Of a stretch of 64,000 nt of DNA, positions 1,043-21,020 are shown piece by piece (the stretch's first letter is position 1; each line of letters opens with the position of its first letter). The stretch is taken from NCBI GenBank assembly GCA_028717245.1, contig JAQUOD010000004.1:65508-129507 (forward strand), written 5' to 3'. Source of the DNA: Candidatus Omnitrophota bacterium (GTDB taxonomy: Bacteria > Omnitrophota > Gorgyraeia > Gygaellales > Profunditerraquicolaceae). A program made the position numbers and the translations under genes. The notes beneath the pieces are model-generated. The model was not told the origin of the DNA. It did not search any database and worked only from the letters and a program-made list of their open reading frames with translations.

Positions 1043-2542
1043 TCATTCTAAAAGTTTATTACGGATCGTATTTACCAGGTCGCTGATTTCTGTATCGGAA
1101 GGGTCCAGATATTCCGCCACAGTGGCTTCTTTTAAAGCCGCGGTGTATTGGCCCTGATAAAAACTCCGCCTGGCGAGTTCTAAATGCCCTAAGGCGCGGC
1201 TTTTATTATCTGGTTGAGCCTGCAAGGCAGTATCTTCTTCTAATGCCTGCCCTTCTTTTTTTTCAAATAATTGTTTTCTTTCCTCGTTCTTTTCCTCTAA
1301 TAATCCTTCTTCAAGAGGCTCCTCTTTTTTGCTGAGCCGGGGCGTTTCTGTTTCTATTTGAGGCTCAACCTGGCCAAAGGGCTCCTGCCCCTTTTGATCT
1401 CTTTCAGGTTGCGCGGTTTGCCCTTCAGACGGAAGAATCCGGCTTTCTCTCAAGGGCCTAAATAAAGAGAGCACAGAATTCAATTCTTCCTGTTCTTTTT
1501 CCAAGGCCCCAAATTCTCCGTTCAGCTGGCTGCCCCTATCTTCAACCCGGAGCAATTCTTCAGAGACCTGCGAGAGTTGCCGTTGATTTTCTTGAAGTCG
1601 AAACATCAATTCCTCTCTTCGTTTGTCAAAGTCTAAAGATTGGGCCTCCAAGCCGGCTATTTGCTTTGGAAGTTCCTTAAGGCCCTCTTTCTGTTTGTCT
1701 AAAATGAATTTCTGGGTCTCTAATTCTTTAAGCGTATCCTCAAGTTGTTTTTGCTGCTCTTCAAAGAACTCTCTCTGGCCCTGGCTCTCCTGAAGCTGGC
1801 GCCTAATATCTTCTTTACGGATGCTTAAATCTAAAGATTGAGATTCTAAGTTAGTTATTTGTTCTGAAAGCTGCGGATATTTGGCTTGAAGGCCTTGTTC
1901 TTTACGAATTAAATCCTGCTTCTGTTTGTCTAAGGCGGCTTTTTGATTTCTTAATTTTTTGATTTTTATATCAAGCTGTTCTTGTTGTTGCTCAAGAGGC
2001 TCTAGGAACTGCTGACAGGCTTCAGGATAAAGAAGCGAAATCCCTCTGATTTGCTTCTTTGCTATTTCTACCCAGGAGTCTAAGGGATCACCCAGCTTTA
2101 TTCTTTTTACCCAACATCCCACAGCATCGCTATATTTGCCTTGGCCTTCATAGAGCAGGGCCAAATTAGAATAGCTATTAGGATAATCCGGTTCTAATTC
2201 TATCGCCTTAAGATACATCTGTTTTGCCTGCGCAGGCTGCCCGAGAGTTTCAAGAATAACTCCGGTGTCGTTATACGCTGGCGCATAAGAAGGGTCAAGG
2301 ACAATCGCCTTCTGGTAATAGGAGAAGGCCTCTTCTATCTTACCTTCCTGCTGTAATGCCAGGCCTCTTTCACGATAACTTATCGCCTCTTCCTGAAGCA
2401 CGGTCAAACCGCTGCCTTGCGCGCAGAAACCGGGCAGGGGCAAAAAAAGCACGGCAATAATAAAATAAAAGGGGAGCAACTTTGCGGGGTAATTTGGCAT
2501 TCTCGTGTTTTTTAGTATATAAGAAAACCCATAGCCGGTCAA
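1043..2542 (-). CDS. TPR-repeat protein with N-terminal signal/TM segment and a long central coiled coil (Q/E/L/K-rich).
   Basis: TPR-like A/Y/L periodicity at both ends (e.g. AISYRERGLALQQEGKIEEAFSYYQKAI), with a heptad-rich EQ/KL middle. Confidence 0.65.
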   Translation of the reverse strand: MTGYGFSYILKNTRMPNYPAKLLPFYFIIAVLFLPLPGFCAQGSGLTVLQEEAISYRERGLALQQEGKIEEAFSYYQKAIVLDPSYAPAYNDTGVILETLGQPAQAKQMYLKAIELEPDYPNSYSNLALLYEGQGKYSDAVGCWVKRIKLGDPLDSWVEIAKKQIRGISLLYPEACQQFLEPLEQQQEQLDIKIKKLRNQKAALDKQKQDLIRKEQGLQAKYPQLSEQITNLESQSLDLSIRKEDIRRQLQESQGQREFFEEQQKQLEDTLKELETQKFILDKQKEGLKELPKQIAGLEAQSLDFDKRREELMFRLQENQRQLSQVSEELLRVEDRGSQLNGEFGALEKEQEELNSVLSLFRPLRESRILPSEGQTAQPERDQKGQEPFGQVEPQIETETPRLSKKEEPLEEGLLEEKNEERKQLFEKKEGQALEEDTALQAQPDNKSRALGHLELARRSFYQGQYTAALKEATVAEYLDPSDTEISDLVNTIRNKLLE

Positions 2543-2549
2543 GAGAAAA

Positions 2550-4730
2550 TTACATCAACGGCGGCAAATCCAGGACAGGATGGTGCACCTTCTGCAAAAA
2601 AACCAACAGCTCTTCTTGCGTCGTAGCTATTGTTTCATCGGCGATCTTATCAATTAAATCAGGTTCGCCTAAATCTTGAGCGCGTTTTTTTAACTTATCC
2701 CCCAACAACTCTTTTAACTCTTTAGGCATCCAAACTAAGCGCTTTAATGCGCCTTCGGCTGAAATAAACTTCTTGCTCACTATATAAAGCTTACCCACGC
2801 CTAAGAAACCCGGGGTCTGCACGCCTCCGCCTACTGAACCGGCTAAGGTAGTGAAGGTCATGCCGCAGGGGGTCATCCCAGGATAATCCCTGTGCACGGC
2901 CATCACCCCGTTTGCTTCCGGGATAATCGCCACGATACACTCAAAACAGCCGCAAGACGATTGCGGAGAATCCATCAGGGAATACATACTTACCTTTTCG
3001 ATGGCCTTATTGGATTTCTGGTTTACGAATTCATTTATATTTTTCCACTGCCCCAATTTCTCATCGAGCAGTTCACCCTTTAGCACAGGCTGGTTTGGCC
3101 CCGTCGGGACAATCTCGTAAGAGGCCTTGCCGTCAAGCCAGGAATATGCCCCGCATAACCCGAGGCGCTCGGGGGTAATAATACAGACATGATTAGGGGC
3201 AAAACTCTGACAGAGCGTGCAGCTGTAAAACGTATCTACGCTCTCATCAGTCATGCCGCTAATACGCTCATCGCGCTCATCAAAAACCTTCTTGGCTTGA
3301 GGTAATAATTTTTCCACATCCGCTGATTTAGTATATATTTTCACCTGTACCTTGTCCAGGATGGCGCTGTATTCCTGGTGCAGCATGGCATGTAAAATTA
3401 CGCCGATATGCTTAAGCCGGAAACCCTTATTAAAGGCATCGTTGGATATCCTGATCCAGTTCATATCCCTCTGGCCTATATGCATCAGGCCCATGGCATA
3501 ATTAACAAAGCGGTGGATCTGGCGCTCTAATATGGGTTCGAAGTCTTTTTGCATTTTGCGGCCGGCTACTTCCACCACAATCGCCAGGGGCATGGCCTTT
3601 TTATCTTTCTCCATCCGGTCGATATCCTCGCCAATAAGCTCTACCTTGCCGTCTTCAACTTCATCTAACTTTTTGGTCGTTAGGTATTCAAAGGCATGGC
3701 TAGCCTTACCGCCGAATTCAACATACAATTGTTCTTTCCTGACGCGTTCACCCTCAAATGCCGCGGCATAAGCAACCGGTATGGGTATAGAGGTAATCTT
3801 CACTTTAACGCCCCTTACCTCTATGCAACGCGGCACAATCTTTTTATAATCTAATTCCTTTACCAACGCCTCATAAACCGTAATCCCCGAGGGTTTTATT
3901 TCCGGGATATCCGTATCGGCAATGATGGGGAAACCCATATTAATTGCCCCGGCGCCGGTAGCATACTTTATATCATCAAGTTCGCCTAAGACCAGCCCGA
4001 AGGCAAAGACGCGCTCTTTGGTATACATCAGGCACTTTTGTGCCTGGCCGGGCTTAATCCCGCCGAAGGTCAAAGCGGAGCGTATGGCCCAGTTCAAGGG
4101 ATATATCGCAGAAATGGTATCGCGGCCGTAAGGGACAATATAATTATCCCAGCCCATCTGCACGTTTTCTTCCAAGAGCTGGTCGATGATGGAGCGTCCC
4201 TTGACGGAAGAACCGACAAAAATCAGGATATTCCTCTGTTGCAGCTGCCGTATAATATCCACTGCTGTTTTATTATCCGGGGCAGCCCCCAGTATCGCCG
4301 CAAACCCCGGCATACGGCCGTCTACCAGTTGTATCCCCAGGGAACGCATAATCGTATCCGTAAAGAAACCGTTACAATCCTTTTGCGGCTCTTCGCTGTA
4401 AAGATAGCGTAGCGCCACAATAATTTCTTCGCAGAATAATGCCGACATACCCGCATTCAAGGCATCCCCAAGGTAGGGAAGCCAGACTTTATCCGACGGC
4501 GGTTTAGGTAAAAGGGACTTAGCATGTTCTAAAATAGGTAATGCCTCCTTTAAGGTCTCAACCTTCGCGCCCAGGAGTGCATTAGCTAAAGGCAGATAGA
4601 ATGCCGTTTCGGGAAAATCGATTTTCTGACTAGGCCCTTTTTCTTTGATGGCCTTGTCTAAAAAACTTGAGGCCTCTTTAAAAATTTCATGCGCGCCCTT
4701 TATAACCGAAGTAGCTACAACCTTAGACAT
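2550..4730 (-). CDS. acsB: Acetyl-CoA synthase (CODH/ACS complex A-cluster subunit).
   Basis: 726 aa. A-cluster ligand pattern C-x2-C-x8-C-x9-C (SCTLCQSFAPNHVCIITPERLGLCG) plus the SSCGCFEC Cys-Gly-Cys bridge motif. Confidence 0.85.
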   Translation of the reverse strand: MSKVVATSVIKGAHEIFKEASSFLDKAIKEKGPSQKIDFPETAFYLPLANALLGAKVETLKEALPILEHAKSLLPKPPSDKVWLPYLGDALNAGMSALFCEEIIVALRYLYSEEPQKDCNGFFTDTIMRSLGIQLVDGRMPGFAAILGAAPDNKTAVDIIRQLQQRNILIFVGSSVKGRSIIDQLLEENVQMGWDNYIVPYGRDTISAIYPLNWAIRSALTFGGIKPGQAQKCLMYTKERVFAFGLVLGELDDIKYATGAGAINMGFPIIADTDIPEIKPSGITVYEALVKELDYKKIVPRCIEVRGVKVKITSIPIPVAYAAAFEGERVRKEQLYVEFGGKASHAFEYLTTKKLDEVEDGKVELIGEDIDRMEKDKKAMPLAIVVEVAGRKMQKDFEPILERQIHRFVNYAMGLMHIGQRDMNWIRISNDAFNKGFRLKHIGVILHAMLHQEYSAILDKVQVKIYTKSADVEKLLPQAKKVFDERDERISGMTDESVDTFYSCTLCQSFAPNHVCIITPERLGLCGAYSWLDGKASYEIVPTGPNQPVLKGELLDEKLGQWKNINEFVNQKSNKAIEKVSMYSLMDSPQSSCGCFECIVAIIPEANGVMAVHRDYPGMTPCGMTFTTLAGSVGGGVQTPGFLGVGKLYIVSKKFISAEGALKRLVWMPKELKELLGDKLKKRAQDLGEPDLIDKIADETIATTQEELLVFLQKVHHPVLDLPPLM

Positions 4731-5988
4731 ATAAGTGCTCCTTATCTTTAACTAAAGCCATAATATCAGGGTAACCGAAATTCTCCCGGAGTAACTTATC
4801 CTTAAAAGACGATACCTCTATGCGCTCTCTAATCAATCTCAAGAGGACGCCGCTATTCTTAATATCGCCTACCAATATTGCCCCCACCGCAAAATTATCT
4901 TTTAAGATTATCTTTTTGTAAAGATTTGCCTTTGTATCATGGAGTTTTAGTTCTTCAAAACCGGCCTCGCCGTCTTTTACTTTATATATACCCAAAGATA
5001 CCGCAGGCAGGCCAAAAAATTCTATGGAATTCATGCCCAGAGAACCCGCGTAATTCAAATTTCCTCCGGCTATATTCGCACCGGCAACCCTGCCCTGTTC
5101 CACTGCCACCGGCCAAAGGGCATTCACGCAAAGCCCGCCCAAAGTTAGATCAAAACTCTCCGCGCAATCACCGGCAGCGTAAATATTAGCTATGTTAGCC
5201 TGTAAAAGATTATTGGTAATTATGCCTTCGTTAAATTTTATCTCTGTTTCCTTGATGGGGTCCATATTCGGGGTAACGCCCTTACCTACGACGACCAGCG
5301 AGGTTTCAAAGGCCTTGCCCGAACCAAGCTTAATCGCCTTTATGTCGCCGTTACCGATAATCTCTGCTACATCCTCACCTAAAATGAATTCAATACCGTT
5401 CTCCTCTAATCTTTTCTGCACAAAACCGGCTGCCTCAGAATCCAGCATCTGCGATAATACCTGCCTGGACTTAATCACTACTTTTACGCCGACATTCCTC
5501 TTTTTTAAAGCATACGCGGCTTTAAGCCCGACGAGGCCGCCGCCCAAAACACAGGCTGCCTTGGTTATTGGCAGGAGGCCGGAGATTTCTTTCGCGTCTT
5601 TTATAGTGCGCAGGCCAAATACGCCCCTTTTCTTAATACCTTTTGTCTCGGGTAATTTTGGCGAAGCGCCTGTGGCTATAAGCAAGGTGTCGTAACTGAC
5701 CTGAGTCTTATCTTCTAAAGTTATACGGCTCTTCTTAGGGTCAATGCGCGCTACTTTCTTATTCAAAAATAACTCAATATTATTTTCGCGGTAGAAATCT
5801 TCCGGCCGGTATAAAATCTTTTCTTCTTTTACGTCGCCGGCTAAATAATAAGAGATAAGGCAACGGCAATAGGCAGGATAATCCTCATCGGAAAAAATGA
5901 GGATTTTAGCGGCTACGTCATTTTTTCTTATTGCCTCAGCCGCGCTTATGCCTGCTGCCGAATTGCCGATTATAACGTATTGTTTCAT
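4723..5988 (-). CDS. FAD-dependent pyridine nucleotide-disulfide oxidoreductase (CODH-associated NAD(P) oxidoreductase).
   Basis: N-terminal MKQYVIIGNSAAGISAAEAIRK dinucleotide-binding motif and a second GGGLVGLKAA Rossmann motif. It sits between cooF and acsB. Confidence 0.75.
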   Translation of the reverse strand: MKQYVIIGNSAAGISAAEAIRKNDVAAKILIFSDEDYPAYCRCLISYYLAGDVKEEKILYRPEDFYRENNIELFLNKKVARIDPKKSRITLEDKTQVSYDTLLIATGASPKLPETKGIKKRGVFGLRTIKDAKEISGLLPITKAACVLGGGLVGLKAAYALKKRNVGVKVVIKSRQVLSQMLDSEAAGFVQKRLEENGIEFILGEDVAEIIGNGDIKAIKLGSGKAFETSLVVVGKGVTPNMDPIKETEIKFNEGIITNNLLQANIANIYAAGDCAESFDLTLGGLCVNALWPVAVEQGRVAGANIAGGNLNYAGSLGMNSIEFFGLPAVSLGIYKVKDGEAGFEELKLHDTKANLYKKIILKDNFAVGAILVGDIKNSGVLLRLIRERIEVSSFKDKLLRENFGYPDIMALVKDKEHLYV

Positions 5989-6009
5989 CCTTAACCTATT
6001 ACCTCCAAC

Positions 6010-6044
6010 AACATTAAAACATTAAAACATTTAAACTTTCAAAC
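6010..6044. repeat. AAAACATT / AAACTTTC word repeat overlapping the cooF stop, upstream of the FAD oxidoreductase gene.
   Basis: aacattaaaacattaaaacatttaaactttcaaac. Confidence 0.75.
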
Positions 6045-6480
6045 TAAGTTCCTCTTGCCAGATAATCGCACCCGTAGGGCAGGCCTTAACACAACTCGGT
6101 TCATCTTTATCCTTACATTTATCACAGCGTAAGGGTAACTTTGTCTTTATATTCGGCCTGATAGCGCCGTAGGGACAAACCATCACGCACATCCAGCATC
6201 CTACGCAGCGCTTATCGTCATGCAGGACCATGCCTTTTTCTTTATCATAAACCAAGGCCGCAGCCATACAGGCATCTACGCAGACGGGGTCTTTACAATG
6301 CCGACAGGAAACCGGATAGTTCTTATCTTTTGAGGCTAAAACTTTTTTCCTGGGCAGGGATAAAACTTCTTCTTTAAACGCCTTAAATAAATCGCCCGTA
6401 AGAGAATGCGCCACGGCACAGGCGATCTCGCAGGATTTACAACCCAGGCATTTTTTTACATCATAATATAACTGCTTCAT
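6031..6480 (-). CDS. cooF: 4Fe-4S ferredoxin, CooF-like CODH electron-transfer subunit.
   Basis: Multiple CxxCxxCxxxCP motifs (CLGCKSCEIAC, CVGCWMCVMVCP). Immediately downstream of cooS. Confidence 0.75.
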   Translation of the reverse strand: MKQLYYDVKKCLGCKSCEIACAVAHSLTGDLFKAFKEEVLSLPRKKVLASKDKNYPVSCRHCKDPVCVDACMAAALVYDKEKGMVLHDDKRCVGCWMCVMVCPYGAIRPNIKTKLPLRCDKCKDKDEPSCVKACPTGAIIWQEELSLKV

Positions 6481-6488
6481 CTCGTCTC

Positions 6489-6563
6489 AGGGACGGTTCT
6501 CAAGATAATCTTAAAGTGTCCCCTGAAAAGGGACACTTTTGCTTTGAGTTGAGAACCGTCCCT
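6489..6563. promoter_or_regulatory. Nested perfect hairpins in the cooS-cooF intergenic region: 15-bp outer stem AGGGACGGTTCTCAA / TTGAGAACCGTCCCT enclosing a 9-bp inner stem AAGTGTCCC / GGGACACTT.
   Basis: Read directly. No U-tract follows on the transcribed strand. Confidence 0.55.
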
Positions 6564-6571
6564 ACTATTTT

Positions 6572-8482
6572 TCATTCATACATTACCGGCTTGAGCTTCA
6601 AATCTTTTCTTTTCTTATCAATATGTTCAATCATCAGATGTGCGGCTTTTATGGGATCAACCTCAAAAGCAAATTTTCCTCCCACTAAGTCCTGGAGGTC
6701 TCCGGTAATAAAATCGGTTACTTTCTGACTTCCTAGAACCGGTTGAGGCGTGCCAAAAACAGTGAATACGCCGCTGGCCACAAAATAAAAACCAATAGAA
6801 ACTGCCTTCTCGCTCATCCATTCTGGCGCTGCTCCTGCTACCGGCAGGTCGCTAATCTTCTCACCCAAGCCACCTTCTTCAATAATCTTGGAGCAGGCAA
6901 TTAAAATCCTGGAATTATCTACACAACTTCCTACATGCAAGACCGGAGGAATCCCTACTGCCTCGCAAATCTCCTGTAACCCCTTGCCGGCAAATTCAAA
7001 TGCTGATTCCGGCTTCAATAATCCTATCTTTGCGTTAGCAATGGCTGAACAACCAGTCACTACCACCAAGACATTATTCTTGAGCAGCTCCTTTACCATT
7101 GCCGTATGGCCAAGGTCATGGGGCACATTAGGATTATTGCAGCCAACCACTCCGGCTATCCCGCGCAATCTCCCTGAAATTATACCCTCATTTACCGGTT
7201 TCCAGGTAGAACGATATTCTCCGCCAATAATATAAGGAATATCTTCAGCGGTAAATCCGGCAATTAAATCCATTGATTCCTCAGGGATGACCACCCTGGC
7301 TTTATTCCTATTCTCAAAATTATCAACTGCCTTCTTGAGGATTAATTTACAGATTTCAAATGCCTTCTCTTGTTTAAATTCAATATGGGTAACACCGGGA
7401 AATTTAGCCTTGGGGCTTGTGGTGATCAATTGCGTATGGAAACAATTGGCAACCTCGGCTAACGCCGGCATAATGCATTGAACGTCAACCATCATCAATT
7501 CCACCGCTCCGGTAAGGATGGCTAATTCCTGTTGAAGAAAATTTCCTGCCACATGGATCCCGTGGCGCATAAGAATCTCATTAGCCGTACAACACATACC
7601 CACAATATTAATGCCTTCTGCGCCCTTTGCCTTGGCCAATTTGATTAGTTCCGGATCCTGGCCTGCCTGGACAATCACATCAGAAAGAGTAGGTTCATGC
7701 CCGTGGACAACTACATTGACGTAATTTTCTTTTAAAACCCCCAAATTAACTTTTGATTTAATGGGAATGGGCGCTCCGAACAGAATATCGCTTAATTCCG
7801 TGGCAATCATTGAGCCGCCCCAGCCATCAGATAGGGCGGTACGCAAGCCATGCATGATAATATTCTTATAATCGTTATCTACCCCCATATGCGTGCGGTG
7901 CATACATTCAACAATTTCGCGGTCAATACCCCGCGGCACAACCCCTAATTTTCTCCAGGCATCCTGGGTCTTTTTGGGGGCGCGCGAAATAAAGCGAAGC
8001 TCATCTTCTTGCTGACCAAATTCATGTAATGCCTTTGCTGCCACCTCACCTGCAATCTCTAAATCTTTTTTACCCTCAACCTTTATTCCATAAAGAAAAG
8101 CTACTTCTTTTAACTTGACCGGATTACTTATTTTATAATCATGGGCCTTGCCCTCTGAGGCCAAAAGTAAAGCCTCGGCAATGTCTCTTCCGTGATCAGA
8201 GTGGGCAGCCGCGCCTGAAGCAATCATTCTTAAAAGATTGCGGGCAACAATAGTATCGGCGCTTGCGCCGCAGACTCCCTTTTTCGCGCCTTCTCCGAAT
8301 GGATCAATCCGACAGGGGCCCATGTTACATATACGGCAACAGATACCTAATTGGCCAAATCCGCACTGCGGCTGCATAATCTCATAACGGTCCCAAACAA
8401 TCTCAATGTTATCAAGCCCTGCCTGCTCAATCATCTTTTGGCTGGCAGGATCTACTGATTTTGTTTTTATGTTATTATTCAC
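6572..8482 (-). CDS. cooS: Anaerobic carbon-monoxide dehydrogenase catalytic subunit.
   Basis: 636 aa. N-terminus CGFGQLGICCRICNMGPCRI (B/D-cluster Cys) and Ni-CODH-like conservation throughout. Confidence 0.9.
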   Translation of the reverse strand: MNNNIKTKSVDPASQKMIEQAGLDNIEIVWDRYEIMQPQCGFGQLGICCRICNMGPCRIDPFGEGAKKGVCGASADTIVARNLLRMIASGAAAHSDHGRDIAEALLLASEGKAHDYKISNPVKLKEVAFLYGIKVEGKKDLEIAGEVAAKALHEFGQQEDELRFISRAPKKTQDAWRKLGVVPRGIDREIVECMHRTHMGVDNDYKNIIMHGLRTALSDGWGGSMIATELSDILFGAPIPIKSKVNLGVLKENYVNVVVHGHEPTLSDVIVQAGQDPELIKLAKAKGAEGINIVGMCCTANEILMRHGIHVAGNFLQQELAILTGAVELMMVDVQCIMPALAEVANCFHTQLITTSPKAKFPGVTHIEFKQEKAFEICKLILKKAVDNFENRNKARVVIPEESMDLIAGFTAEDIPYIIGGEYRSTWKPVNEGIISGRLRGIAGVVGCNNPNVPHDLGHTAMVKELLKNNVLVVVTGCSAIANAKIGLLKPESAFEFAGKGLQEICEAVGIPPVLHVGSCVDNSRILIACSKIIEEGGLGEKISDLPVAGAAPEWMSEKAVSIGFYFVASGVFTVFGTPQPVLGSQKVTDFITGDLQDLVGGKFAFEVDPIKAAHLMIEHIDKKRKDLKLKPVMYE

Positions 8483-8499
8483 CTTAATCCTCCCGATAT

Positions 8500-9375
8500 C
8501 TATAGTCCTGCTGCATCCAATACCAAAGGGACCTTCTTATCCCAGCCAATGGGCATGATATGAATTCCATGACACATTGGTTTTAATTCTTTTATTAATC
8601 GTACGGCTATCTCTATAGACCTCTTCGCTCTCTCTTCTTTAGGCGCTGAGCTCATTTCATCTATCAGGTTCTGCGGGACAGTAACCCCGGCAACATTCTC
8701 ATTCATATACTTTGCCATACCCGCGGATTTCAATAAAACGATACCTGCCAATATGGTTGTCTTAAGGTGCTTTATTTTATTTAAAAAATTCTCAAAGACT
8801 TTTATATCATAAACTGCTTGGGTCTGAAAGAATTCTGCGCCAGCTTCTATCTTCTTTTCCATCTTCAGGATCTGCGGCTCTATGGGGTCTGCCCCGGGGT
8901 TAACCACAGCACCGACGCAAAATTTAGGCGGCTGGCCTTCCAATTTATTCCCTTTCATATCAGAACCTTCCTGAAGTTTCTTCACTACGCCTAATAATTG
9001 CACGGAATCCAAATCAAATACGGGTTTTGCTTCCGGGTGGTCGCCTAAAGTAGTATGGTCGCCGGTTAAAATAAGTAAATTTTCTATGCCCAAGGCGGCG
9101 GCGGATAAGATATCCGACTGAAGCGCAAGGCGATTCCTGTCGCGGCAGGTCACCTGGAATATCGGCTCAAACCCCTTCTGTTTTAATAAACTAGAAACGG
9201 CTAAAGACCCCAGGCGCATCACCGAGCTTTGTAAGTCCGTGACGTTTATAGCATCTACGCGGCCGCGGATGAGTTCAGCGTCCTCCAGAAGAATCTTGGT
9301 CTCAATCCCCTTCGGCGGCCCAATCTCCGAAGTCACCAAAAACTTCCCAGACTCTAATTTTTCTTTGAAAGTCAT
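8500..9375 (-). CDS. metF: Methylenetetrahydrofolate reductase (MetF-like).
   Basis: 291-aa MTHFR-like TIM-barrel sequence in a folate/WL cluster between folD and cooS. Confidence 0.7.
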   Translation of the reverse strand: MTFKEKLESGKFLVTSEIGPPKGIETKILLEDAELIRGRVDAINVTDLQSSVMRLGSLAVSSLLKQKGFEPIFQVTCRDRNRLALQSDILSAAALGIENLLILTGDHTTLGDHPEAKPVFDLDSVQLLGVVKKLQEGSDMKGNKLEGQPPKFCVGAVVNPGADPIEPQILKMEKKIEAGAEFFQTQAVYDIKVFENFLNKIKHLKTTILAGIVLLKSAGMAKYMNENVAGVTVPQNLIDEMSSAPKEERAKRSIEIAVRLIKELKPMCHGIHIMPIGWDKKVPLVLDAAGL

Positions 9376-9390
9376 TACTATCTTCTCTTT

Positions 9391-9490
9391 AGCGGGTGAC
9401 GCGGGAGATGCCTCGAGCCAAATTTGGCGAGAGGCTCATCACGCGGTGAGGACCCGCTACCTCACCAGCGAAAAAAAGACAGATTCATTT
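9391..9490. repeat. Short copy of the GC-rich 'X' element family. It has the outer arms of the 20826-21020 copy with the middle missing, and ends in a GACAGATTCATTT motif.
   Basis: AGCGGGTGACG...ATGCCTCG...GGACCCGCTACCTCACCAGCGAAAAAAAGACAGATTCATTT matches both ends of the 20826-21020 copy. Confidence 0.5.
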
Positions 9491-9502
9491 ACTATGTTAT
9501 CA

Positions 9503-9553
9503 GGGACAGTCCCCTTGGTTTGCTTCGGATTAGCTTTCTACGGGGACAGTCCC
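9503..9553. repeat. REP-like pair of GGGACAGTCCC(C) 5-1-5 palindromes spaced about 27 nt apart, starting 5 nt beyond the folD stop codon.
   Basis: AGGGACAGTCCCCTTGGTTT...TACGGGGACAGTCCCT. The same unit recurs at 18357-18407 and 21103-21154. Confidence 0.6.
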
Positions 9554-9558
9554 TGTTA

Positions 9559-10404
9559 CTATTCTTGTTGTAACTTTGCTGCTTCGACGACGTTACGCAT
9601 CAGCATAGTAACGGTCAGGGGGCCGACACCGCCGGGAACCGGGGTAATATAGGATGCGCGTTTTTCTGCAGCCTCAAATTCCACATCGCCGACGATTTTA
9701 TCAGCCACGCGGTTTATCCCCACATCAATCACCACTGCGCCCTCTTTAATCCATTCGCCTTTAATGAGCCCGGCCCTGCCTACTGCCACAATCAAAACTT
9801 CGGCCTTATTGACGTGCTCCTCTAATTTTTCTGCCTTTGACGTGCCGATATGGCAGACCGTAACCGTAGCAAATTTATCCAATAATAAAAGTGAAAGCGG
9901 CTTACCCACGATTTCGCTGTGGCCTACGACTACCACTTCCTTACCGTATAAATCCAACCCTGTTTCTTTCAATAGCTCCATTACCGCTGCCGGGGTACAA
10001 GGCAATATCTTCGCCTGGCCAAAAACAATCTTACCAATATTCGCCGGGTGCATTCCCTCCACATCTTTATCCGGTGAAATATACTGGCTGATTTTTTTAT
10101 AATCTATTTGGGGCGGAAGCGGCATCTGGATAATAATACCGTTAATAGACTTATCTATATTTAATTTCCAGATAAATTCAGTAAGGGAAACCTCAGTAGT
10201 ATCCGCGCTTAACTTATGGAATTGATATTCTATGCCTAAGCCCTCTGCGTTTTTTTTCTGAGACTTTGCGTAGGCCTCGGCACCGGCGTTATCCCCTACC
10301 TGGATACTGGCTAAAACCGGCTTATTCTTTAAAGAAACTATCTCTTGTTTGATCCCTTCTTTTATCTTCTCTGCTAACGGCTTACCCTCTAATAATTTTG
10401 CCAA
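9559..10404 (-). CDS. folD: Bifunctional methylene-THF dehydrogenase / methenyl-THF cyclohydrolase.
   Basis: MAKLLEGKPLAEKIKEGIKQEI... with FolD-family length and conservation. Confidence 0.9.
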   Translation of the reverse strand: MAKLLEGKPLAEKIKEGIKQEIVSLKNKPVLASIQVGDNAGAEAYAKSQKKNAEGLGIEYQFHKLSADTTEVSLTEFIWKLNIDKSINGIIIQMPLPPQIDYKKISQYISPDKDVEGMHPANIGKIVFGQAKILPCTPAAVMELLKETGLDLYGKEVVVVGHSEIVGKPLSLLLLDKFATVTVCHIGTSKAEKLEEHVNKAEVLIVAVGRAGLIKGEWIKEGAVVIDVGINRVADKIVGDVEFEAAEKRASYITPVPGGVGPLTVTMLMRNVVEAAKLQQE

Positions 10405-10945
10405 CTTTCTCCTCCATCTCCTGTCTTATCCTTTTTACGGTCTTTTCTTTCTGGATTAATTCTTTTCTCACGGCAGTAGCCAGCTTTTTATCGCCCAGCA
10501 TCTTTAGGTTTATCTCGACATTAAAATACGCCGAAGCAAAGGCTGCCTCTAAAAGAATTGCCGCCACTGCCACGTCGCTGATAAGGTTAAGGTTGCCTTT
10601 GGTAATCAGGGGCGGGCATAATTTTATCCCTTCATAAGAAAGCCGCGCTATCATAAAAGGAACATCCAGGGCATCCCGGATATTTTTACTCTGATAGGCG
10701 ACAACGTCTAAATCTACTAAATTTAAAAATTCCTCTCTTAATTTTTCGGATTTCTCTATTATCTTCTTTAACGCGTCTTCATATTTGGCATATTTGGGTT
10801 TTCCTAAGGTAAAATTTACCACCATACTGATTAAAGATGCGCCCAGGCCGGCGTTCAATGCGGCGGCAGAACCGCCTCCGGGAGCGGGAAGTTTAGCGGA
10901 TAGATCGTTTAAGTATCTTTTCAGGCTCAGGTCTTTATAGTTCAT
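10382..10945 (-). CDS. fchA: Cyclodeaminase/cyclohydrolase family protein (FchA/FtcD-like methenyl-THF cyclohydrolase).
   Basis: LPAPGGGSAAALNAGLGASL motif typical of the FTCD_C family. It sits between fhs and folD. Confidence 0.7.
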   Translation of the reverse strand: MNYKDLSLKRYLNDLSAKLPAPGGGSAAALNAGLGASLISMVVNFTLGKPKYAKYEDALKKIIEKSEKLREEFLNLVDLDVVAYQSKNIRDALDVPFMIARLSYEGIKLCPPLITKGNLNLISDVAVAAILLEAAFASAYFNVEINLKMLGDKKLATAVRKELIQKEKTVKRIRQEMEEKVGKIIRG

Positions 10946-12636
10946 GATAATCCGACGATTTCTCCTTTCTCATTCAGGTCAATCTTCTCGCCTACCGGAT
11001 GGCTGGGCAGCCCGGGCATAGTCTGCATATTTGCGCAGAGAGGGTACAAGAATCCTGCGCCGATAGAAGCGCGAATATCTCTTATTGGCAGGATAAAGTT
11101 TCTGGGCCTTCCCTTTAGGTTCGGGTCGTGGGATAAAGAAAGATGAGTTTTAGCCATACATATGGGCAATTTATCCCATCCGCGTTCGTTAAACAATTTA
11201 ATTTTTGCTTGCGCCAAGTCCGCATATTCTACGTCTTTGGCGCCGTAAATTTTAGTAGCAATAATCTTAATTTTCTCCTTAATGGGCGCATCCAGCGTAT
11301 AGAGGAATTTAAATTTCTTAGGCGAATTCGCTGCCTTAATTACTGCCCTGGCTAAATCTGTCCCGCCTTTTGAACCTTTGCTAAAGACTTCACTTACGCA
11401 ACAATCATGGGCGCCAAACCCTAAAGCCTTCTCCTTGACAAAATCTATTTCTTTATCCGTATCGCAGGAAAACCTGTTTATCGCTACTACTACCGGAATG
11501 CCGAATACCTTAACATTCTCTATTTGTTTTTCCAGATTACAGAGACCCTCCCCTATTGCCCTTATATCTTCTTTCTCAAAACAAGTATCTAAGGGCATGC
11601 CGGCGACAACTTTAAATCTTCCGCTGTGCGCCTTTAATGCCCTGATAGAACAAACAATTACTGCGGCATCGGGGATGAGCCCGCTGACCCGGCATTTGAT
11701 ATCAAAAAACTTTTCTGCCCCGCAGTCAGCGCCAAAGCCTGCCTCGGTAACTACATATTCGGAAAACGCCAAAGCAATCTTATCGGCTAATATCGAACTA
11801 TTGCCGTGCGCAATATTAGCAAAAGGCCCTGCGTGCACGAAACAAGGCGTATGCTCAATGGTCTGGATAAGGTTAGGTTTTATGGCATCTCGTAAAAGTA
11901 CGCTCATGCTGCCTGCGGCTTTTAAATCCTGGGCGGTTACCGGCTTATTGTCAAAAGTATCTGCCAAGACAACCCTGCCGATACGTTTACGCAGGTCAGC
12001 TAAACTACTGCTCAGCGCTAATATTGCCATCAGCTCTGAAGCAACGGTAATATCAAAACCAGTATCCCGCGCAATACCGTCTTCTTTTGCGCCTAAGCCG
12101 ATTTTTACGTTCCTCAAGAACCTGTCGCTTATATCTGCTACCCGGCGCCAGTAGATTTTTTCCGGGTCGATATTCAGGCGGTTGCCCTTAAAAACAGAAT
12201 TATCTAAAAACGCTGCTGCCAGATTATTAGCAATACCCACCGCATGCACATCGCCGGTAAAATTCAAATTAAAATCCTCCATGGGCAATACCTGGGAATA
12301 TCCTCCTCCTGCGGCACCGCCCTTTATACCAAAAACAGGGCCTAAGGAAGGCTGCCTTATGCAGGTTGAGGTAAGTTTACCCAACTTGTTTAAAGCCATA
12401 GAAAGGCCGATAGTAGTTACGGTCTTTCCTTCACCCAGCGGCGTAGGAGTGATAGCCGTAACTAAAATATATTTGCCTTTCTTTTTATTTTTGATCTTAT
12501 CCAGGATACCCAGGTCTATCTTGGCAATATTGCGGCCGTAAGGGATAAGGTATTCTTTGCCGATTTTTAATTTAGCGGCTATCTTTTCTATGGGTTCTTT
12601 TCGCGCCTTGCGGGCGATTTCAATATCGGGTAACAT
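10942..12636 (-). CDS. fhs: Formate--tetrahydrofolate ligase.
   Basis: 564 aa with TPTPLGEGKTVTTIGL P-loop and the FTHFS signature. Confidence 0.9.
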   Translation of the reverse strand: MLPDIEIARKARKEPIEKIAAKLKIGKEYLIPYGRNIAKIDLGILDKIKNKKKGKYILVTAITPTPLGEGKTVTTIGLSMALNKLGKLTSTCIRQPSLGPVFGIKGGAAGGGYSQVLPMEDFNLNFTGDVHAVGIANNLAAAFLDNSVFKGNRLNIDPEKIYWRRVADISDRFLRNVKIGLGAKEDGIARDTGFDITVASELMAILALSSSLADLRKRIGRVVLADTFDNKPVTAQDLKAAGSMSVLLRDAIKPNLIQTIEHTPCFVHAGPFANIAHGNSSILADKIALAFSEYVVTEAGFGADCGAEKFFDIKCRVSGLIPDAAVIVCSIRALKAHSGRFKVVAGMPLDTCFEKEDIRAIGEGLCNLEKQIENVKVFGIPVVVAINRFSCDTDKEIDFVKEKALGFGAHDCCVSEVFSKGSKGGTDLARAVIKAANSPKKFKFLYTLDAPIKEKIKIIATKIYGAKDVEYADLAQAKIKLFNERGWDKLPICMAKTHLSLSHDPNLKGRPRNFILPIRDIRASIGAGFLYPLCANMQTMPGLPSHPVGEKIDLNEKGEIVGLS

Positions 12637-16969: not shown

Positions 16970-18150
16970 TTGAGGTTATCCACGGAAGAAATCTGCGCAC
17001 CGGGATAATAATATTCCAGTATCTTCTTATAGTCATATCCTTCTTTGGCCATAAAATAAGCGCCCCACTGGCAAAGGCCCACGCCATGGCCCCAACCCAG
17101 GCCTTCAAAGACTATATCATCATCCAATACTTTCACCTGGAAATTCGTGCTTCTGATAATATCCGGGCCTGCGATATTCCTGAAATCCTTGGCGGAAATC
17201 TTTATTTCTTTTTTATCACTTATTATTTTAAGGTCAGTAATACGGCTGGATTTATCATAACCCAAAATCAGGATATCCTCGATATCCCCAAGTTTGTATC
17301 CAGATTTTAGTAACGTATCTTTTAAATCTTTCCGCGCCAGAACGCTGTGCCAGCTAAAATGAGGAGACTCCCGGCAAAAATTGCAAGGTAGGCCCTTAAG
17401 TGGCCCTATATTTATATTCCAAAGTAGAGAGGCATCTTCTGTATGCCCGCCGCAGGTAGCGTGATAAAAAGCAGGAAGGATCTTATCCTTATAAGTAAGG
17501 ACCATGCCAGCCGTTTCATCCACTGCCTTATTGATACGGTAACGCTCAGCGCCACGACCGCCGTACACCTGAGAATAGACGTCGCTGGTTAAATCAAAAT
17601 CATTTTTGCTATTTTCCTGCATTTTATAGAGGGCAAAGGTACGGAATACTATGACCTCGGCCTTAAGCGATTCTATTGGCCGGTAATGCGAAGTCTCCCG
17701 CACCGAAATCCCTTTTATATAGTCCTCCAGGTCAATATAATTAATGGCCGTAAGCTTAGCGTAATCATCTTTGATAAACTGCATATTGCCTCTGAACATC
17801 CGGCCGTTAATCATAACGGCATCGGCTTTATCTGCCTTAATAAAAAGTTTATTTGTCCTGGATTTTATATCGCCCAATGAAATGCCTGTGCTATAAGATG
17901 TGAGGGTAGTGTTTAAGTTTTTGCCGCGGTTTAAAACTTTGTTCTCTGCCGGATCCAGGACTTCATAAGGCCCCTTTATCTCTAGCCTCAAAGAAGCAGC
18001 ATTTTGTAAAATGGCTACCCGGATATACCTGGCCGTTCCGGCAAAAGAACTAACGACTAGCGACAAACGACTAACGACTAAAATAATTATCAATATAAAT
18101 AATAATTTTAATTTGTTCAATGTGCTTTTTATCGGCGAGGCCATAGCCAA
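16966..18150 (-). CDS. SpoIID/LytB-domain protein (amidase enhancer-like) with N-terminal TM segment.
   Basis: C-terminal GWGHGVGLCQWGAYFMAKEGYDYKKILEYYYPG matches SpoIID/LytB domains. Confidence 0.7.
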   Translation of the reverse strand: MAMASPIKSTLNKLKLLFILIIILVVSRLSLVVSSFAGTARYIRVAILQNAASLRLEIKGPYEVLDPAENKVLNRGKNLNTTLTSYSTGISLGDIKSRTNKLFIKADKADAVMINGRMFRGNMQFIKDDYAKLTAINYIDLEDYIKGISVRETSHYRPIESLKAEVIVFRTFALYKMQENSKNDFDLTSDVYSQVYGGRGAERYRINKAVDETAGMVLTYKDKILPAFYHATCGGHTEDASLLWNINIGPLKGLPCNFCRESPHFSWHSVLARKDLKDTLLKSGYKLGDIEDILILGYDKSSRITDLKIISDKKEIKISAKDFRNIAGPDIIRSTNFQVKVLDDDIVFEGLGWGHGVGLCQWGAYFMAKEGYDYKKILEYYYPGAQISSVDNLK

Positions 18151-18344
18151 AATATTATAGAAAGGATGATACTAATTAATATAGATGTGGTTATAGGAAA
18201 ATAAAAACTGAAATTCTTCTTCTGGATGCAGATATCTCCCGGCAACCTCCCTAAAAAGGGAATTTTATGGGCGAAGGTTAATAATACGCCTACGCCTAAC
18301 AAAATAATACCGAAGATAATTAATGTTTTGCCGATTTCCTGCAT
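18129..18344 (-). CDS. DUF2905-family small membrane protein. The likely start is the internal Met (MQEIGKT...); the track ORF extends to 18413.
   Basis: KIPFLGRLPGDICIQKKNFSFYFPITTSILISIILSIIFWLW resembles the DUF2905 consensus. Confidence 0.55.
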   Translation of the reverse strand: MQEIGKTLIIFGIILLGVGVLLTFAHKIPFLGRLPGDICIQKKNFSFYFPITTSILISIILSIIFWLWPRR

Positions 18345-18356
18345 CTTTGCCCGAAA

Positions 18357-18407
18357 GGGACTGTCCCCGTAGATATCGAACCCGTTAGAAACCAAGGGGA
18401 CTGTCCC
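18357..18407. repeat. REP-like GGGACTGTCCCC...GGGGACTGTCCC pair, inverted relative to the other two copies, 7 nt beyond the queH stop.
   Basis: gggactgtccccgtagatatcgaacccgttagaaaccaaggggactgtccc. Confidence 0.6.
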
Positions 18408-18414
18408 TGCCACA

Positions 18415-18951
18415 TTATTTTTTCCTACTATACCTCTCTACTTCTGAATAAATGCAACCGCAATATTTCTGGCAATAAATACCGTGGGCCTTGGCTGAAT
18501 CATGCGCCTGCTTAAAGCCCGGGCGGAAGTCCTCGTAATAAAAATTAACTCCCTCCACCTGCGCGATAGCCTCTCCGATTTTTTTGAGTAACTCCTGGTC
18601 CTGATAGGGGCTGACTAATAAAGTAGTGGAAAAAGAATCAAATCCTTTATCTTTTGCAGTCTTAGCAGTTGCTTTCAGGCGGAAAGTCCAGCAGAGCGAA
18701 CACCTCTCGGGATTCTTTTCCTTAAGGTTCACCTCCTGAAAATACTGCGAAGGCTGATAATCAGGATAAATTACCTCCAGATTAACCCGCTTGCTATAAT
18801 CTTCTACTGCCCGCCTTCTGTTTTGATATTCTGCAAGCGGATGGACATTGGGATTATAGAAAAATCCCGCCACCTCAAAGTCCTTCTCCCTTAATCTCTC
18901 CAAGGGATATATCAAACACGGCGCACAGCAGGTATGTAATAATAGTTTCAT
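18415..18951 (-). CDS. queH: Epoxyqueuosine reductase QueH (DUF208).
   Basis: N-terminal LLLHTCCAPC and C-terminal CQKYCGCIYS cysteine motifs. Co-located with tgt and queA. Confidence 0.8.
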   Translation of the reverse strand: MKLLLHTCCAPCLIYPLERLREKDFEVAGFFYNPNVHPLAEYQNRRRAVEDYSKRVNLEVIYPDYQPSQYFQEVNLKEKNPERCSLCWTFRLKATAKTAKDKGFDSFSTTLLVSPYQDQELLKKIGEAIAQVEGVNFYYEDFRPGFKQAHDSAKAHGIYCQKYCGCIYSEVERYSRKK

Positions 18952-18953
18952 AT

Positions 18954-18990
18954 TTCGTAACTAGTAAGCTCGTAACTCGTAACTAGTAAT
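18954..18990. repeat. (CGTAACT / AGTAAGCT) word repeat immediately upstream of queH.
   Basis: tttcgtaactagtaagctcgtaactcgtaactagtaat. A related TTACTAGTTACGAGTTACTG lies at 35546-35582. Confidence 0.7.
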
Positions 18991-19037
18991 TTTAATACTA
19001 TGTAAAAGCAAGCCAATCCACCCGTAAAAATAAGCTC

Positions 19038-19066
19038 TTGACAACATGCCTATTATAACCTATACT
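19038..19066 (+). promoter_or_regulatory. Near-consensus sigma70-type promoter, TTGACA-N17-TATACT, on the plus strand. It sits next to a solo terminal fragment of the X element and reads antisense into the DUF3800 gene.
   Basis: ttgacaacatgcctattataacctatact, read directly. Confidence 0.35.
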
Positions 19067-19137
19067 TATGTTTGGCTGTATGACCGAAACGGGTTCTCTT
19101 TTCGAGACCCTAATAAAATTAGGAAATACAGCCATTT

Positions 19138-19833
19138 TTATTTAAAAATCCATTCCCTAAGGCGTATCTTCTTGCCTATATATTGCTTAACCACCTTCAC
19201 CACAGCCAATTTCATCGGATTTTCGCCTTTCTTCAAATCATAGTTAACCGCGCCTAACACTAAATCCGCAATACCAATCAAGTCATCTTTTTCAGAATCT
19301 CTGGGTTCAACGGTTTTTATAGTATTTCGTTTAGTACTTAAATTTATCTCCCGCTTAATATACTCGCAGATATTATCATCCCTCATCCTGACTTTTTTAT
19401 CTAGATAAACAACCGCTTCATTTAATATGCTAGCATTTTCTAAGAGCAATTCTTTGGTAAAGAAATTATAGGCTCGAAACATTCCTCTTGATTTAGCTAT
19501 TTTGATTTGTTTTTCCGTTAAATCTTTAATTTTCTTAATGTCATCGTCAAAATACCTCAATTCTAACTTCTCATTTGAAACTGCCAAGGCCCGAAAATAA
19601 ATATGCTGCCTCAAGATTTCATCTAAGACCTCACAGGCTACCCTTGAGCGTTTAGAAGAAAAATAATGTATTTCTTTAAAATGGAATTCCTTCTGATAAT
19701 TATGTTTTTGCCTTATTCGTTTTATAATTTCGTAAAGCGGCTCTCTATCCTTTACAAACAAAAGGCCGACAACAAACTTTCCCGTAGTACCGACTACGCC
19801 GCTCTCATCCTGATAAACAAAATGGCTCCTCAA
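19138..19833 (-). CDS. DUF3800-family protein with the conserved N-terminal DES motif. AT-rich and probably horizontally acquired.
   Basis: MRSHFVYQDESGVVG... N-terminus and ...DLIGIADLVLGA C-terminal motif. Codon usage is visibly more AT-rich than in the flanking genes. Confidence 0.6.
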   Translation of the reverse strand: MRSHFVYQDESGVVGTTGKFVVGLLFVKDREPLYEIIKRIRQKHNYQKEFHFKEIHYFSSKRSRVACEVLDEILRQHIYFRALAVSNEKLELRYFDDDIKKIKDLTEKQIKIAKSRGMFRAYNFFTKELLLENASILNEAVVYLDKKVRMRDDNICEYIKREINLSTKRNTIKTVEPRDSEKDDLIGIADLVLGAVNYDLKKGENPMKLAVVKVVKQYIGKKIRLREWIFK

Positions 19834-19894
19834 TCTTACTCCTTATACACACTCGCTTGAAAACCGTCTTAAGTTTTATAATCTTTTACTCGGT

Positions 19895-20068
19895 TTTACG
19901 GGTCCTGTCTTGGCTTGTTTTCTCGCAGGGACGCTCGTTTTGCCCAGCGTGCAAAACTTCGCTCGACTTTCGGCCTCGCTCTCACCGATAATTAATAGCG
20001 GGTGAACCGTGCCCGCTCGGCCTGCAAACGCCCTGCTCGAAACCAAGCCAATCCATCCGTAAAATACA
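19895..20068. mobile_element. GC-rich X element, MITE-like with imperfect TIRs TTTTACGG...CCGTAAAA. It is about 96% identical to 53500-53665 over roughly 145 nt.
   Basis: Direct comparison of the two loci. A terminal fragment recurs at 19005-19030. Confidence 0.6.
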
Positions 20069-20082
20069 TAACAACCCTCTAT

Positions 20083-20766
20083 CTATTCACCAACTTTAGT
20101 TTCTTTAGGCAATGGCGAATCACTAACTGATTCAGGTGGTACCGGTTTTAGTTTATCAAACCAATCAATGTAAGGTGTTATAGATCTAATTAACCCTACT
20201 CCAGGGAGAGCTTTACCAGTAGCTCTGTTCGGAATGTAAGCTGTTACAAAACCCACCAGTTCTGAAAAACGATCGAATGTTGGTCCGCCACTCACACCAT
20301 TTATAACTACACCATCTACTAAATATGCTTCTCTTTCAGCTAGCCATGCACTTACGCGACCAGAAAAAAAACAAAGTTGAGTTGGATATACCGAAGGGAA
20401 ACCACACCACCCCAACTCAACTCCTGCTTTTTTATGGCTTTTTTTCTCAAATAATGGTAAAACCTCATCTGGTAATGGCAGTTGACCTTTTGGAAGACGA
20501 ATTAAAGCCGAATCAGTTGCGTCGTCCCAGTGGATAGACCGATTACCTTCTTTTAATAGAATTGTTTTGCCTGTTATGTGATGTTTAACTTTTATGGGTT
20601 GATCCCATTCCACAGCGTAATTGACAACATGCCATGCTGTAGCGATACCTATTACTTTTTCTCCTTCGGAAGAAGCGACAAGAAAACCTGTTCCACTTCC
20701 TGCTGGAGTACTTATATAAACAACGTGATTCTGCAAGTTTTCCAATACCTCATACAATTCTTTCAC
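20083..20766 (-). CDS. Trypsin-like (S1 family) serine peptidase, cytoplasmic-looking and AT-rich.
   Basis: His in TAWHVV, Asp in DSALIRL, Ser in GVSGGP (GDSGGP-like). Codon usage differs from neighbours. Confidence 0.65.
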   Translation of the reverse strand: MKELYEVLENLQNHVVYISTPAGSGTGFLVASSEGEKVIGIATAWHVVNYAVEWDQPIKVKHHITGKTILLKEGNRSIHWDDATDSALIRLPKGQLPLPDEVLPLFEKKSHKKAGVELGWCGFPSVYPTQLCFFSGRVSAWLAEREAYLVDGVVINGVSGGPTFDRFSELVGFVTAYIPNRATGKALPGVGLIRSITPYIDWFDKLKPVPPESVSDSPLPKETKVGE

Positions 20767-20825
20767 CGTATTATCCTCCTATCTAATTAGTGTGAATTTG
20801 GTAGTTTCGAGCTTGCGTTAGCATT

Positions 20826-21020
20826 TAGCGGGTGACGAGGCATGTTTTGAGCAGCATCTTGAAAATTCGAGCGGGCACGGTTGCCCCGCTAAATACGAAG
20901 CCGGGCAGAGCGAGAATTTTCACCGAAGTGCAGTGAGCCACGCTGGGGCGAACAAACGGTGCTGCGAAAAATATGCCTCGGCAGGACCCGCTACCTCGCA
21001 AGCGAGAAAAGCTGTAGTAA
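20826..21020. mobile_element. Diverged long copy of the X element, in the opposite orientation to 19895-20068.
   Basis: CGAGCGGGCACGGTTGCCCCGCT...GAGCGAG... aligns with the reverse complement of the X core. Its ends match the 9391-9490 short copy. Confidence 0.5.

Follow-up and report, generated by a model that had tools for sequence, protein, structure and literature searches.

A Wood–Ljungdahl Gene Cluster in Candidatus Omnitrophota and Its Probable Second acs Locus

Introduction

The acs operon of Moorella thermoacetica and Carboxydothermus hydrogenoformans has the order acsA-acsB-acsC-cooC-acsD-acsE. Dehalococcoides mccartyi reportedly has an incomplete Wood–Ljungdahl pathway, in which AcsB, AcsC, and AcsD are kept and carbon monoxide dehydrogenase (CODH), AcsE, and MetF are lacking. 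The subject of the present work is a stretch of 64,000 nucleotides from a Candidatus Omnitrophota bacterium (GenBank assembly GCA_028717245.1, contig JAQUOD010000004.1, positions 65,508 to 129,507), which we call the window. It carries a cluster of genes for the Wood–Ljungdahl, or reductive acetyl-CoA, pathway, including acsB, for acetyl-CoA synthase (ACS), and cooS, for a CODH, but not acsC and acsD, which encode the corrinoid iron–sulfur protein (CFeSP), or the methyltransferase gene acsE. We propose that the window very probably holds the main locus, that is, the larger half, of a conventional bacterial Wood–Ljungdahl pathway that is split over two loci.

For the Omnitrophota, such a pathway has already been published. 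According to Seymour et al. (2023, PMC10066038), the classes Gorgyraia and Velamenicoccia have a Wood–Ljungdahl pathway with CooS/F and an “AcsB-E” complex, generally without formate dehydrogenase, and QZM4-1-77 is named among the families with the most complete pathway. One locus of the window's AcsB clade, L011, comes from the isolate QZM4_1.bins.77, a name that fits this family placeholder. A 2026 preprint on complete Omnitrophota genomes (10.64898/2026.06.07.730766) does not mention the Wood–Ljungdahl pathway.

The CODH of the window also recalls the CODH–CooF–FNOR unit, where FNOR is a FAD/NAD(P)-dependent oxidoreductase. In the literature it is treated as a module with a putative role in CO oxidation or NAD(P) linkage (Inoue et al. 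2019, PMC6344411; see also Whitham 2015 and Geelhoed 2016, as cited there). As of 2019, there had been no biochemical study of an FNOR of this kind (PMC6344411).

The Gene Cluster in the Window

Gene identities were taken from a listing of open reading frames (ORFs) and from Pfam and NCBIfam profile scans. These agree with the gene order given in the preliminary description of the window: eight genes on the minus strand, from fhs to acsB, and after them a TPR/coiled-coil gene and polA. The first four belong to the methyl branch. fhs (10942-12636; 564 amino acids, aa) encodes formate–tetrahydrofolate (THF) ligase, with 836 bits to PF01268 and 793 bits to NF010030, against a cut-off of 652. The methenyl-THF cyclohydrolase gene (10382-10945; 187 aa) matches PF04961 FTCD_C with 158 bits; since its score to the FchA equivalog NF045657, 142 bits, is under the cut-off of 275, “fchA-like” is an apt label. 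folD (9559-10404; 281 aa), for methylene-THF dehydrogenase/cyclohydrolase, scores 223 bits to PF02882 and 112 bits to PF00763, and up to 316 bits to the NCBIfam FolD equivalogs, under their cut-offs. The metF-like gene (8500-9375; 291 aa; NCBI MDD4980342.1) encodes a methylene-THF reductase (MTHFR) with 123 bits to PF02219; all NCBIfam MTHFR equivalogs are under cut-off, and the top match, at 255 bits, is the MTHFR half of NF006396. The Pfam scores of Fhs, FolD, and MetF are far over gathering, and of these three Fhs alone is over an NCBIfam equivalog cut-off.

The remaining four genes begin with cooS (6572-8482; 636 aa; NCBI MDD4980343.1), which encodes the catalytic subunit of a nickel CODH and scores 682 bits to TIGR01702 against a cut-off of 478. 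It is followed by a cooF-like 4Fe-4S ferredoxin gene (6031-6480; 149 aa; 63 bits to PF13247 Fer4_11, with matches to other Fer4 families) and by an FNOR gene (4723-5988; 421 aa), whose product matches PF07992 (Pyr_redox_2) with 198 bits, PF00070, and PF18267 Rubredoxin_C; its top NCBIfam match is PadH, at 293 bits and under the cut-off of that model. The last of the eight is acsB (2550-4730; 726 aa), with 1051 bits to NF040764 against a cut-off of 800 and matches to PF18537, PF03598, and PF19436.

Intergenic spacings in the cluster run from -23 to +183 bp, the largest gap being that between folD and metF (183 bp); cooS and cooF are separated by 91 bp, and cooF and the oxidoreductase gene by 42 bp. 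Given these spacings, the cluster has the look of a single transcription unit that joins on to the housekeeping genes upstream. Promoter and terminator scans gave results at chance level, and no Rfam family, tRNAs and riboswitches included, reached its gathering score on either strand of the 64-kb window.

The A-cluster ligands of AcsB are complete, as the preliminary description had stated: Cys504, Cys507, Cys516, and Cys526 were located in the sequence together with the Cys593-Gly594-Cys595 nickel site. Residues 9-726 align with the solved enzymes of C. hydrogenoformans, Clostridium autoethanogenum, and Moorella at 700-712 bits (712 bits to the C. hydrogenoformans ACS 7ZKJ_B and 706 bits to C. 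autoethanogenum 6YTT_A), and the N-terminal CODH-docking domain, PF18537, covers residues 24-110. The protein is 100% identical to P0001 (MDD4980346.1 / MDD5592366.1), encoded on a 146,951-bp contig of a Candidatus Omnitrophica/Omnitrophota metagenome-assembled genome (MAG), and more than 120 database proteins share at least 83% identity with it. One AcsB found in the course of this work, that of L081 (6227-9991 in our extract of CP070837.1, a 1.55-Mb Omnitrophota contig), is 1254 aa long because its C-terminal ACS domain is interrupted by an intein that bears a LAGLIDADG endonuclease domain.

The preliminary description had also noted that acsC, acsD, and acsE are not in the window, and this stands. 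Pfam scans of the 65 ORFs that reach 118 aa or more over the 64 kb gave no match to CdhD, FeS, or Pterin_bind, and six-frame tblastn of the window with Omnitrophota AcsC, RACo, CooC, AcsD, and AcsE gave a best E value of 0.03, over 19 residues. In the ORF scans, which covered the 64-kb window, there was no formate dehydrogenase. No metV lies beside metF in the window or in any locus examined. The case of acsC, described next, shows that a neighbour missing from one window is not a gene missing from the genome.

The Second Locus

A full-length AcsC, P0355 (442 aa; MDD4980564.1 / MDD5592587.1), is encoded on a 96,260-bp contig. It contains PF04060 and PF03599, scores 594 bits to the AcsC equivalog NF003195 (cut-off 306), and has the N-terminal motif of Cys17, Cys20, Cys25, and Cys42. 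That this protein belongs to the same genome as the window is indicated by the accession numbers. CooS occurs as MDD4980343.1 and under a second accession ending in 369, and MetF as MDD4980342.1 and under one ending in 370; two accession series for identical proteins imply that the MAG was deposited twice. NCBI numbers the proteins of a single genome submission consecutively. The accessions of P0355 lie 218 and 221 numbers past those of AcsB in the two series, and the offset between series is 612,020 for AcsB and 612,023 for P0355, compared with 614,364 for P0263, an AcsC that belongs to a different MAG of that batch. The consecutive numbering and the near-equal offsets therefore place AcsB and AcsC in one MAG, on different contigs. 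AcsC, as a component of the Wood–Ljungdahl module KEGG M00377, is accordingly present in the genome of the window.

The same split is seen in the assembly GCA_001805765.1 (MHGW01), where acsB (L010) is on MHGW01000044.1 and acsC (L169, protein P0353) on MHGW01000006.1. L010 belongs to the window's AcsB clade. Between the window MAG and MHGW01 the AcsB proteins are 83% and the AcsC proteins 76% identical, so that the divergence of the two loci is concordant.

What else the second locus contains can be read from relatives. In a metagenome scan with AcsC, the top matches were acsC genes with no preceding acsB (L086, L088-L091, L094, L096, and L100), set in the order tsaD, mgtC, bactofilin, HTH gene, AIRC-domain gene, FmdE-domain gene, acsC, RACo, cooC, acsD, and acsE. 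The RACo, AcsD, and AcsE of these metagenome loci have their closest homologues outside their own group in Omnitrophota with adjacent acs genes, at 55-64% identity, and the tetranucleotide correlation of their contigs with the window is about 0.93. A profile of the second-locus AcsC returned at least 120 matches, many of them named Omnitrophica, Omnitrophota, or Omnitrophica WOR_2. In L166 and L175 the order is larB, FmdE-domain gene, acsC, RACo, cooC, acsD, and acsE; L172 and L173 run from acsC to acsE within the stretch covered, and L176-L186 are consistent with this order as far as their contigs reach, some having no FmdE-domain ORF. Wherever the contig is long enough (L094, L096, L100, L166, L172, L173, and L175), acsD and acsE come after acsC-RACo-cooC.

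Of the relatives of P0355 whose DNA could be retrieved, the nearest are L175 and L172, each with an AcsC 81% identical to it, and the whole module is present there. The L175 AcsD scores 431 bits to NF003376 (cut-off 280) and the L175 AcsE 302 bits to NF005719 (cut-off 259); the activator of the L175/L172 type scores 667 bits to the AcsV/RACo model, under the cut-off of 800, yet has all the RACo Pfam domains. By synteny with these relatives, AcsD, AcsE, RACo, and CooC would also flank AcsC in the MAG of the window.

Searches with the other kind of AcsC did not lead to this genome. A profile of acsB-adjacent Omnitrophota AcsC returned only proteins of its own kind, all at least 67% identical to an AcsC seen beside acsB; ten NCBI accessions from it were checked, none of which (0/10) fell in this MAG's range, and the contexts checked were acsB-adjacent.

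Some further features of the second locus may be recorded. Ahead of the separate acsC module there is always a homologue of LarB, a protein of nickel-pincer cofactor biosynthesis (289 bits to NF033503, cut-off 175), at L175 6836-7942 and likewise in L166, L172, L181, L086, L094, L096, and L100. An FmdE-domain ORF of 133-150 aa usually stands immediately before acsC in the separate module. A TPR gene found after the second locus was considered as an orthologue of the TPR gene downstream of acsB, and comparison ruled this out.

The Neighbourhoods of acsB and the Evolution of the Split

A scan with AcsB, taking one genome per species, gave 80 loci, mostly from Omnitrophota, whose ORFs were called and labelled by BLAST. 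In 22 of them acsC is beside or near acsB, the usual order being acsB, acsC (about 445 aa), a RACo-type activator (about 640 aa), usually cooC, acsD (about 320 aa), and acsE (262 aa); Pfam confirmed these identities in L081, L082, and L085. In 37 others, among them those most closely related to the window, a TPR gene and polA come after acsB, directly in most. The conserved genes downstream of polA in these loci (462, 202, 418, 352, 262, and 400 aa) were considered as acs genes and are instead glgA, coaE, rho, prfA, prmC, and murA. The 10 kb around acsB contain no homologue of acsC, acsD, or acsE in any of the 37.

In a neighbour-joining tree of AcsB, the window layout corresponds to a single clade, with about 27 species representatives. 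This Omnitrophota clade consistently keeps its acs genes at two conserved loci. A second AcsB clade has the same downstream neighbours and no cooS or cooF; in it (L052-L080), acsB comes directly after metF or after a shortened oxidoreductase-like ORF of 265-308 aa, a layout in agreement with the “truncated carbonyl branch” published for Velamenicoccus-like Omnitrophota. In a third arrangement (L084, 7650-11344; L036, L037, and L119), acsB and acsC are adjacent and are followed by unrelated housekeeping genes, which means that the RACo, acsD, and acsE genes of these organisms must be at another site.

A locus of a neighbouring AcsB clade, L029, is instructive in this regard. Its order is acsB-acsC-RACo-acsD-acsE, and three further genes separate acsE from the TPR orthologue. 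The window layout looks like L029 with the block from acsC to acsE taken out, as if the module had moved in the window's clade.

The TPR gene of the window (1043-2542; 499 aa; TPR Pfam families) is the orthologue of the 250-340-aa TPR gene found after acsB in most of the 37 loci. Both ends of its product align with the 278-aa protein of L001, and the difference is a Gln/Glu-rich coiled-coil insert of about 235 aa (approximately residues 192-426). It is a conserved downstream neighbour of acsB, outside the pathway. Next to it is polA (3-956), of which the window edge leaves only the 5′ part, with the 5′-3′ exonuclease domains PF02739 (194 bits) and PF01367 (107 bits); relatives have an 846-aa polA at the equivalent position.

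Two sets of inserted genes were considered as possible substitutes for missing functions. Those that follow acsB in L006, L007, and L008, taken as candidate corrinoid methyltransferases, turned out to be unrelated: they are GH77, a PP-loop ATPase, RmuC, EPSP synthase, MreB, and SpoIIE and GGDEF regulators. The ORFs between folD and metF in relatives, taken as candidates for MetV, are DMT_6 and DUF975-like membrane proteins where they have a Pfam match, and two have none. Such small membrane-protein ORFs occur at L030 7513-7842, L079 6713-7366, and L059 7626-8258, the DMT_6 insert being 109 aa and the DUF975-like ones 210-217 aa long.

The Proposed Pathway and Its Alternatives

We propose that the two loci together would operate as follows. 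From formate on, the methyl branch in the window (Fhs, FchA-like/FolD, and MetF) would produce methyl-THF. AcsE would move the methyl group from methyl-THF to the corrinoid cobalt of AcsCD, which RACo would keep active. CooS would reduce CO2 to CO (or oxidise CO), and the A-cluster of AcsB would join methyl, CO, and CoA into acetyl-CoA. In this scheme the methyl-transfer module, composed of AcsC/AcsD, AcsE, RACo, and a CooC-type ATPase, would be supplied from the second locus on the other contig.

The preliminary description had left two alternatives, namely that the missing genes are elsewhere in the genome or that this ACS/CODH works in a non-canonical, CFeSP-free arrangement. In the latter, the organism would have neither CFeSP nor methyltransferase, and AcsB and CooS would use, for example, another corrinoid methyl donor or would catalyse a mere exchange of CO and acetyl-CoA. 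In favour of such an arrangement is the lack of acsC, acsD, and acsE in the 64-kb window and in the 10 kb around acsB in the 37 related loci. Nevertheless, the AcsC in the same MAG, adjacent by accession in both deposited copies, the presence of both loci in MHGW01, and a second-locus family of more than 120 AcsC proteins with the same layout in every context inspected all speak against it, as does the lack of any relation to methyltransferases among the genes inserted after acsB in some relatives. We consider a CFeSP-free arrangement refuted for practical purposes, with hardly any probability left to it. A Dehalococcoides-like case would imply that at least one of acsC, acsD, and acsE is gone from the whole genome while acsB is kept; against this, AcsC is in the MAG of the window and both loci are in MHGW01. 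The other alternative, that acsC, acsD, and acsE are elsewhere in the genome, is borne out directly for acsC, by P0355; for acsD and acsE, the support is the strong synteny seen in relatives. Two points weigh against the split pathway in the form that we propose: AcsD, AcsE, RACo, and CooC of this MAG rest on the synteny of relatives, and the linkage of the two contigs depends on MAG binning and on the sequential numbering of NCBI accessions. One may ask whether the AcsC contig came from a co-occurring Omnitrophota population and the pairing is a spurious product of binning; the source is a MAG, and the two genes are on separate contigs of 146,951 and 96,260 bp. Such mis-binning is unlikely, and we would give it only a very small chance, given that the pairing recurs in MHGW01, an independent MAG of another study, with concordant divergence at the two loci. 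Moreover, where other Omnitrophota have acsC next to acsB, the encoded AcsC proteins fall into sequence groups of their own that reach no more than 61% identity to P0355, and the second-locus family is the only type of AcsC found here without an adjacent acsB.

A different matter is what the gene set, if complete, is for. It is quite possible, although we would put it at somewhat under even, that its main role is other than autotrophic CO2 fixation: assimilation of formate or CO, an electron sink in sugar fermentation, or the oxidation of acetate in reverse. The window has no formate dehydrogenase; Seymour et al. report that Omnitrophota pathways generally lack it, propose formate or CO as substrates, and allow for reverse operation (PMC10066038); and the CODH is accompanied by CooF and a FAD/NAD(P) oxidoreductase, a unit tied to CO oxidation in the literature (PMC6344411). 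On the other side, the direction of flux cannot be read from sequence, and the forward direction written above is to be taken as presumptive. This is a question of physiology, and any of these roles is compatible with a pathway split over two loci.

The Electron Module beside CooS

The Cys/His motifs of all three clusters, D, B, and C, are present in CooS. Its best match in the PDB is the CODH2 of Thermococcus sp. AM4, 6T7J, at 760 bits; another of its best solved relatives is 6YTT_B, the CODH subunit of the C. autoethanogenum CODH/ACS complex, at 683 bits. It scores only 533-540 bits to the ACS-bound CODHs of Moorella and C. hydrogenoformans. The match to 6YTT_B means that complex formation with ACS is known for a CODH of this sequence type. 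With this score, a separate CODH of the acsA type, for which the preliminary description had suggested a search, need not be invoked. CooS presumably docks on AcsB. Across this part of the Omnitrophota, CooS is the sole CODH beside acsB, and it is followed by CooF and the FAD/NAD(P) oxidoreductase.

The genes for CooS, the CooF-type 4Fe-4S protein, and the FAD/NAD(P) oxidoreductase are adjacent and on one strand, which is the arrangement that defines the CODH–CooF–FNOR unit. Through the oxidoreductase the CODH may be coupled to NAD(P), as the preliminary description suggested; this idea fits the unit discussed by Inoue et al. (PMC6344411). The module varies. In L084 (4636-7662) and L085 (3614-6685), from single-amplified genomes of Omnitrophota in sister lineages (JBHPFI01 and JBHPFV01), there is no FAD/NAD(P) oxidoreductase between cooF and acsB; in its place is a trio of a NuoE-like (2Fe-2S thioredoxin-like) protein, a NuoF-like (Complex1_51K) protein, and a Fer2_4/Fer4 protein. 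This trio could be a different, possibly bifurcating, NAD(P)H-linked module. It is tempting to go further and suppose that the ACS-bound CODH is wired to pyridine nucleotides, possibly via flavin-based electron bifurcation, rather than to free ferredoxin alone; we regard this as rather improbable. If true, such wiring would be a variant of CODH/ACS energetics that has so far had no biochemical characterisation. This variable electron module beside the ACS-linked CooS, with the oxidoreductase in the window and the NuoE/NuoF-like trio in L084 and L085, is the mildly novel thread in our material.

Genomic Surroundings

From 12.6 to 64 kb the window is occupied by housekeeping genes, among them rnhB, rplS, trmD, tgt, queA, ruvB, infB, nusA, ispG, and dxr, together with purA, serA, clpP, tig, lpt/kds genes, genes for lipopolysaccharide (LPS) glycosyltransferases, and lpxK. 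All window ORFs with a Pfam match are on the minus strand, an unusually uniform orientation across 64 kb, and GC skew is below 0 in every 2-kb bin, with a cumulative value of -3.78. No Pfam match at E ≤ 1e-5 was obtained for a 588-aa ORF of the minus strand (40291-42057) that is flanked by an HMGL-like gene and serA. The GC fraction falls to 0.389 at 18000-21000, where genes for a DUF3800 protein (19138-19833) and a trypsin-like peptidase (20083-20766) lie between queH and ruvB; this segment may be a small insertion.

Comparison with Known Systems

The observation from which this work started is real, yet ordinary: a split gene set in a phylum whose pathway is already published. It does not overturn current understanding, and its value is mainly one of correct annotation. 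When acs is split over two loci, calls made on a single contig or a single operon would wrongly score the pathway as incomplete. The split layout, the intermediate seen in L029, and the exchangeable electron module beside CooS may aid the reconstruction of carbon metabolism in the Omnitrophota.

The genome of the window agrees with the Omnitrophota pathway of Seymour et al. (PMC10066038): it is of the same phylum, it combines Fhs, FolD, MetF, CooS/F, and AcsB with AcsC and, probably, the rest of the CFeSP and the methyltransferase, and the window, too, has no formate dehydrogenase. In the searched text of that study the split of acs over two loci is not spelled out, and the present MAG is possibly outside their data set.

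In Dehalococcoides mccartyi acs genes are reportedly used although the pathway is not complete, a precedent for the kind of scenario raised by the preliminary description. Unlike that organism, the window has CODH and MetF, AcsC is in the same genome, and no incompleteness is demonstrated.

The CODH/ACS of C. autoethanogenum (6YTT) is close to the window proteins in both subunits, by the scores of CooS and AcsB given above; the difference is that the Omnitrophota complex is proposed from such comparisons, and that the top PDB match of CooS, 6T7J, is a stand-alone enzyme. The trio of cooS, CooF-type ferredoxin, and FAD-dependent NAD(P) oxidoreductase genes is like the CODH–CooF–FNOR unit in adjacency and strand, but is embedded between metF and acsB in a Wood–Ljungdahl operon and not stand-alone. 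With the operon of Moorella and Carboxydothermus, finally, the Omnitrophota share a full-length AcsB with identical A-cluster ligands, as well as AcsC (P0355), AcsD, and AcsE (L175) homologues over the NCBIfam cut-offs. They differ from it in that the CODH of the window is of the CooS type and is followed by CooF and the oxidoreductase before acsB, and in that the CFeSP/methyltransferase module of the window's clade stands at a separate locus.

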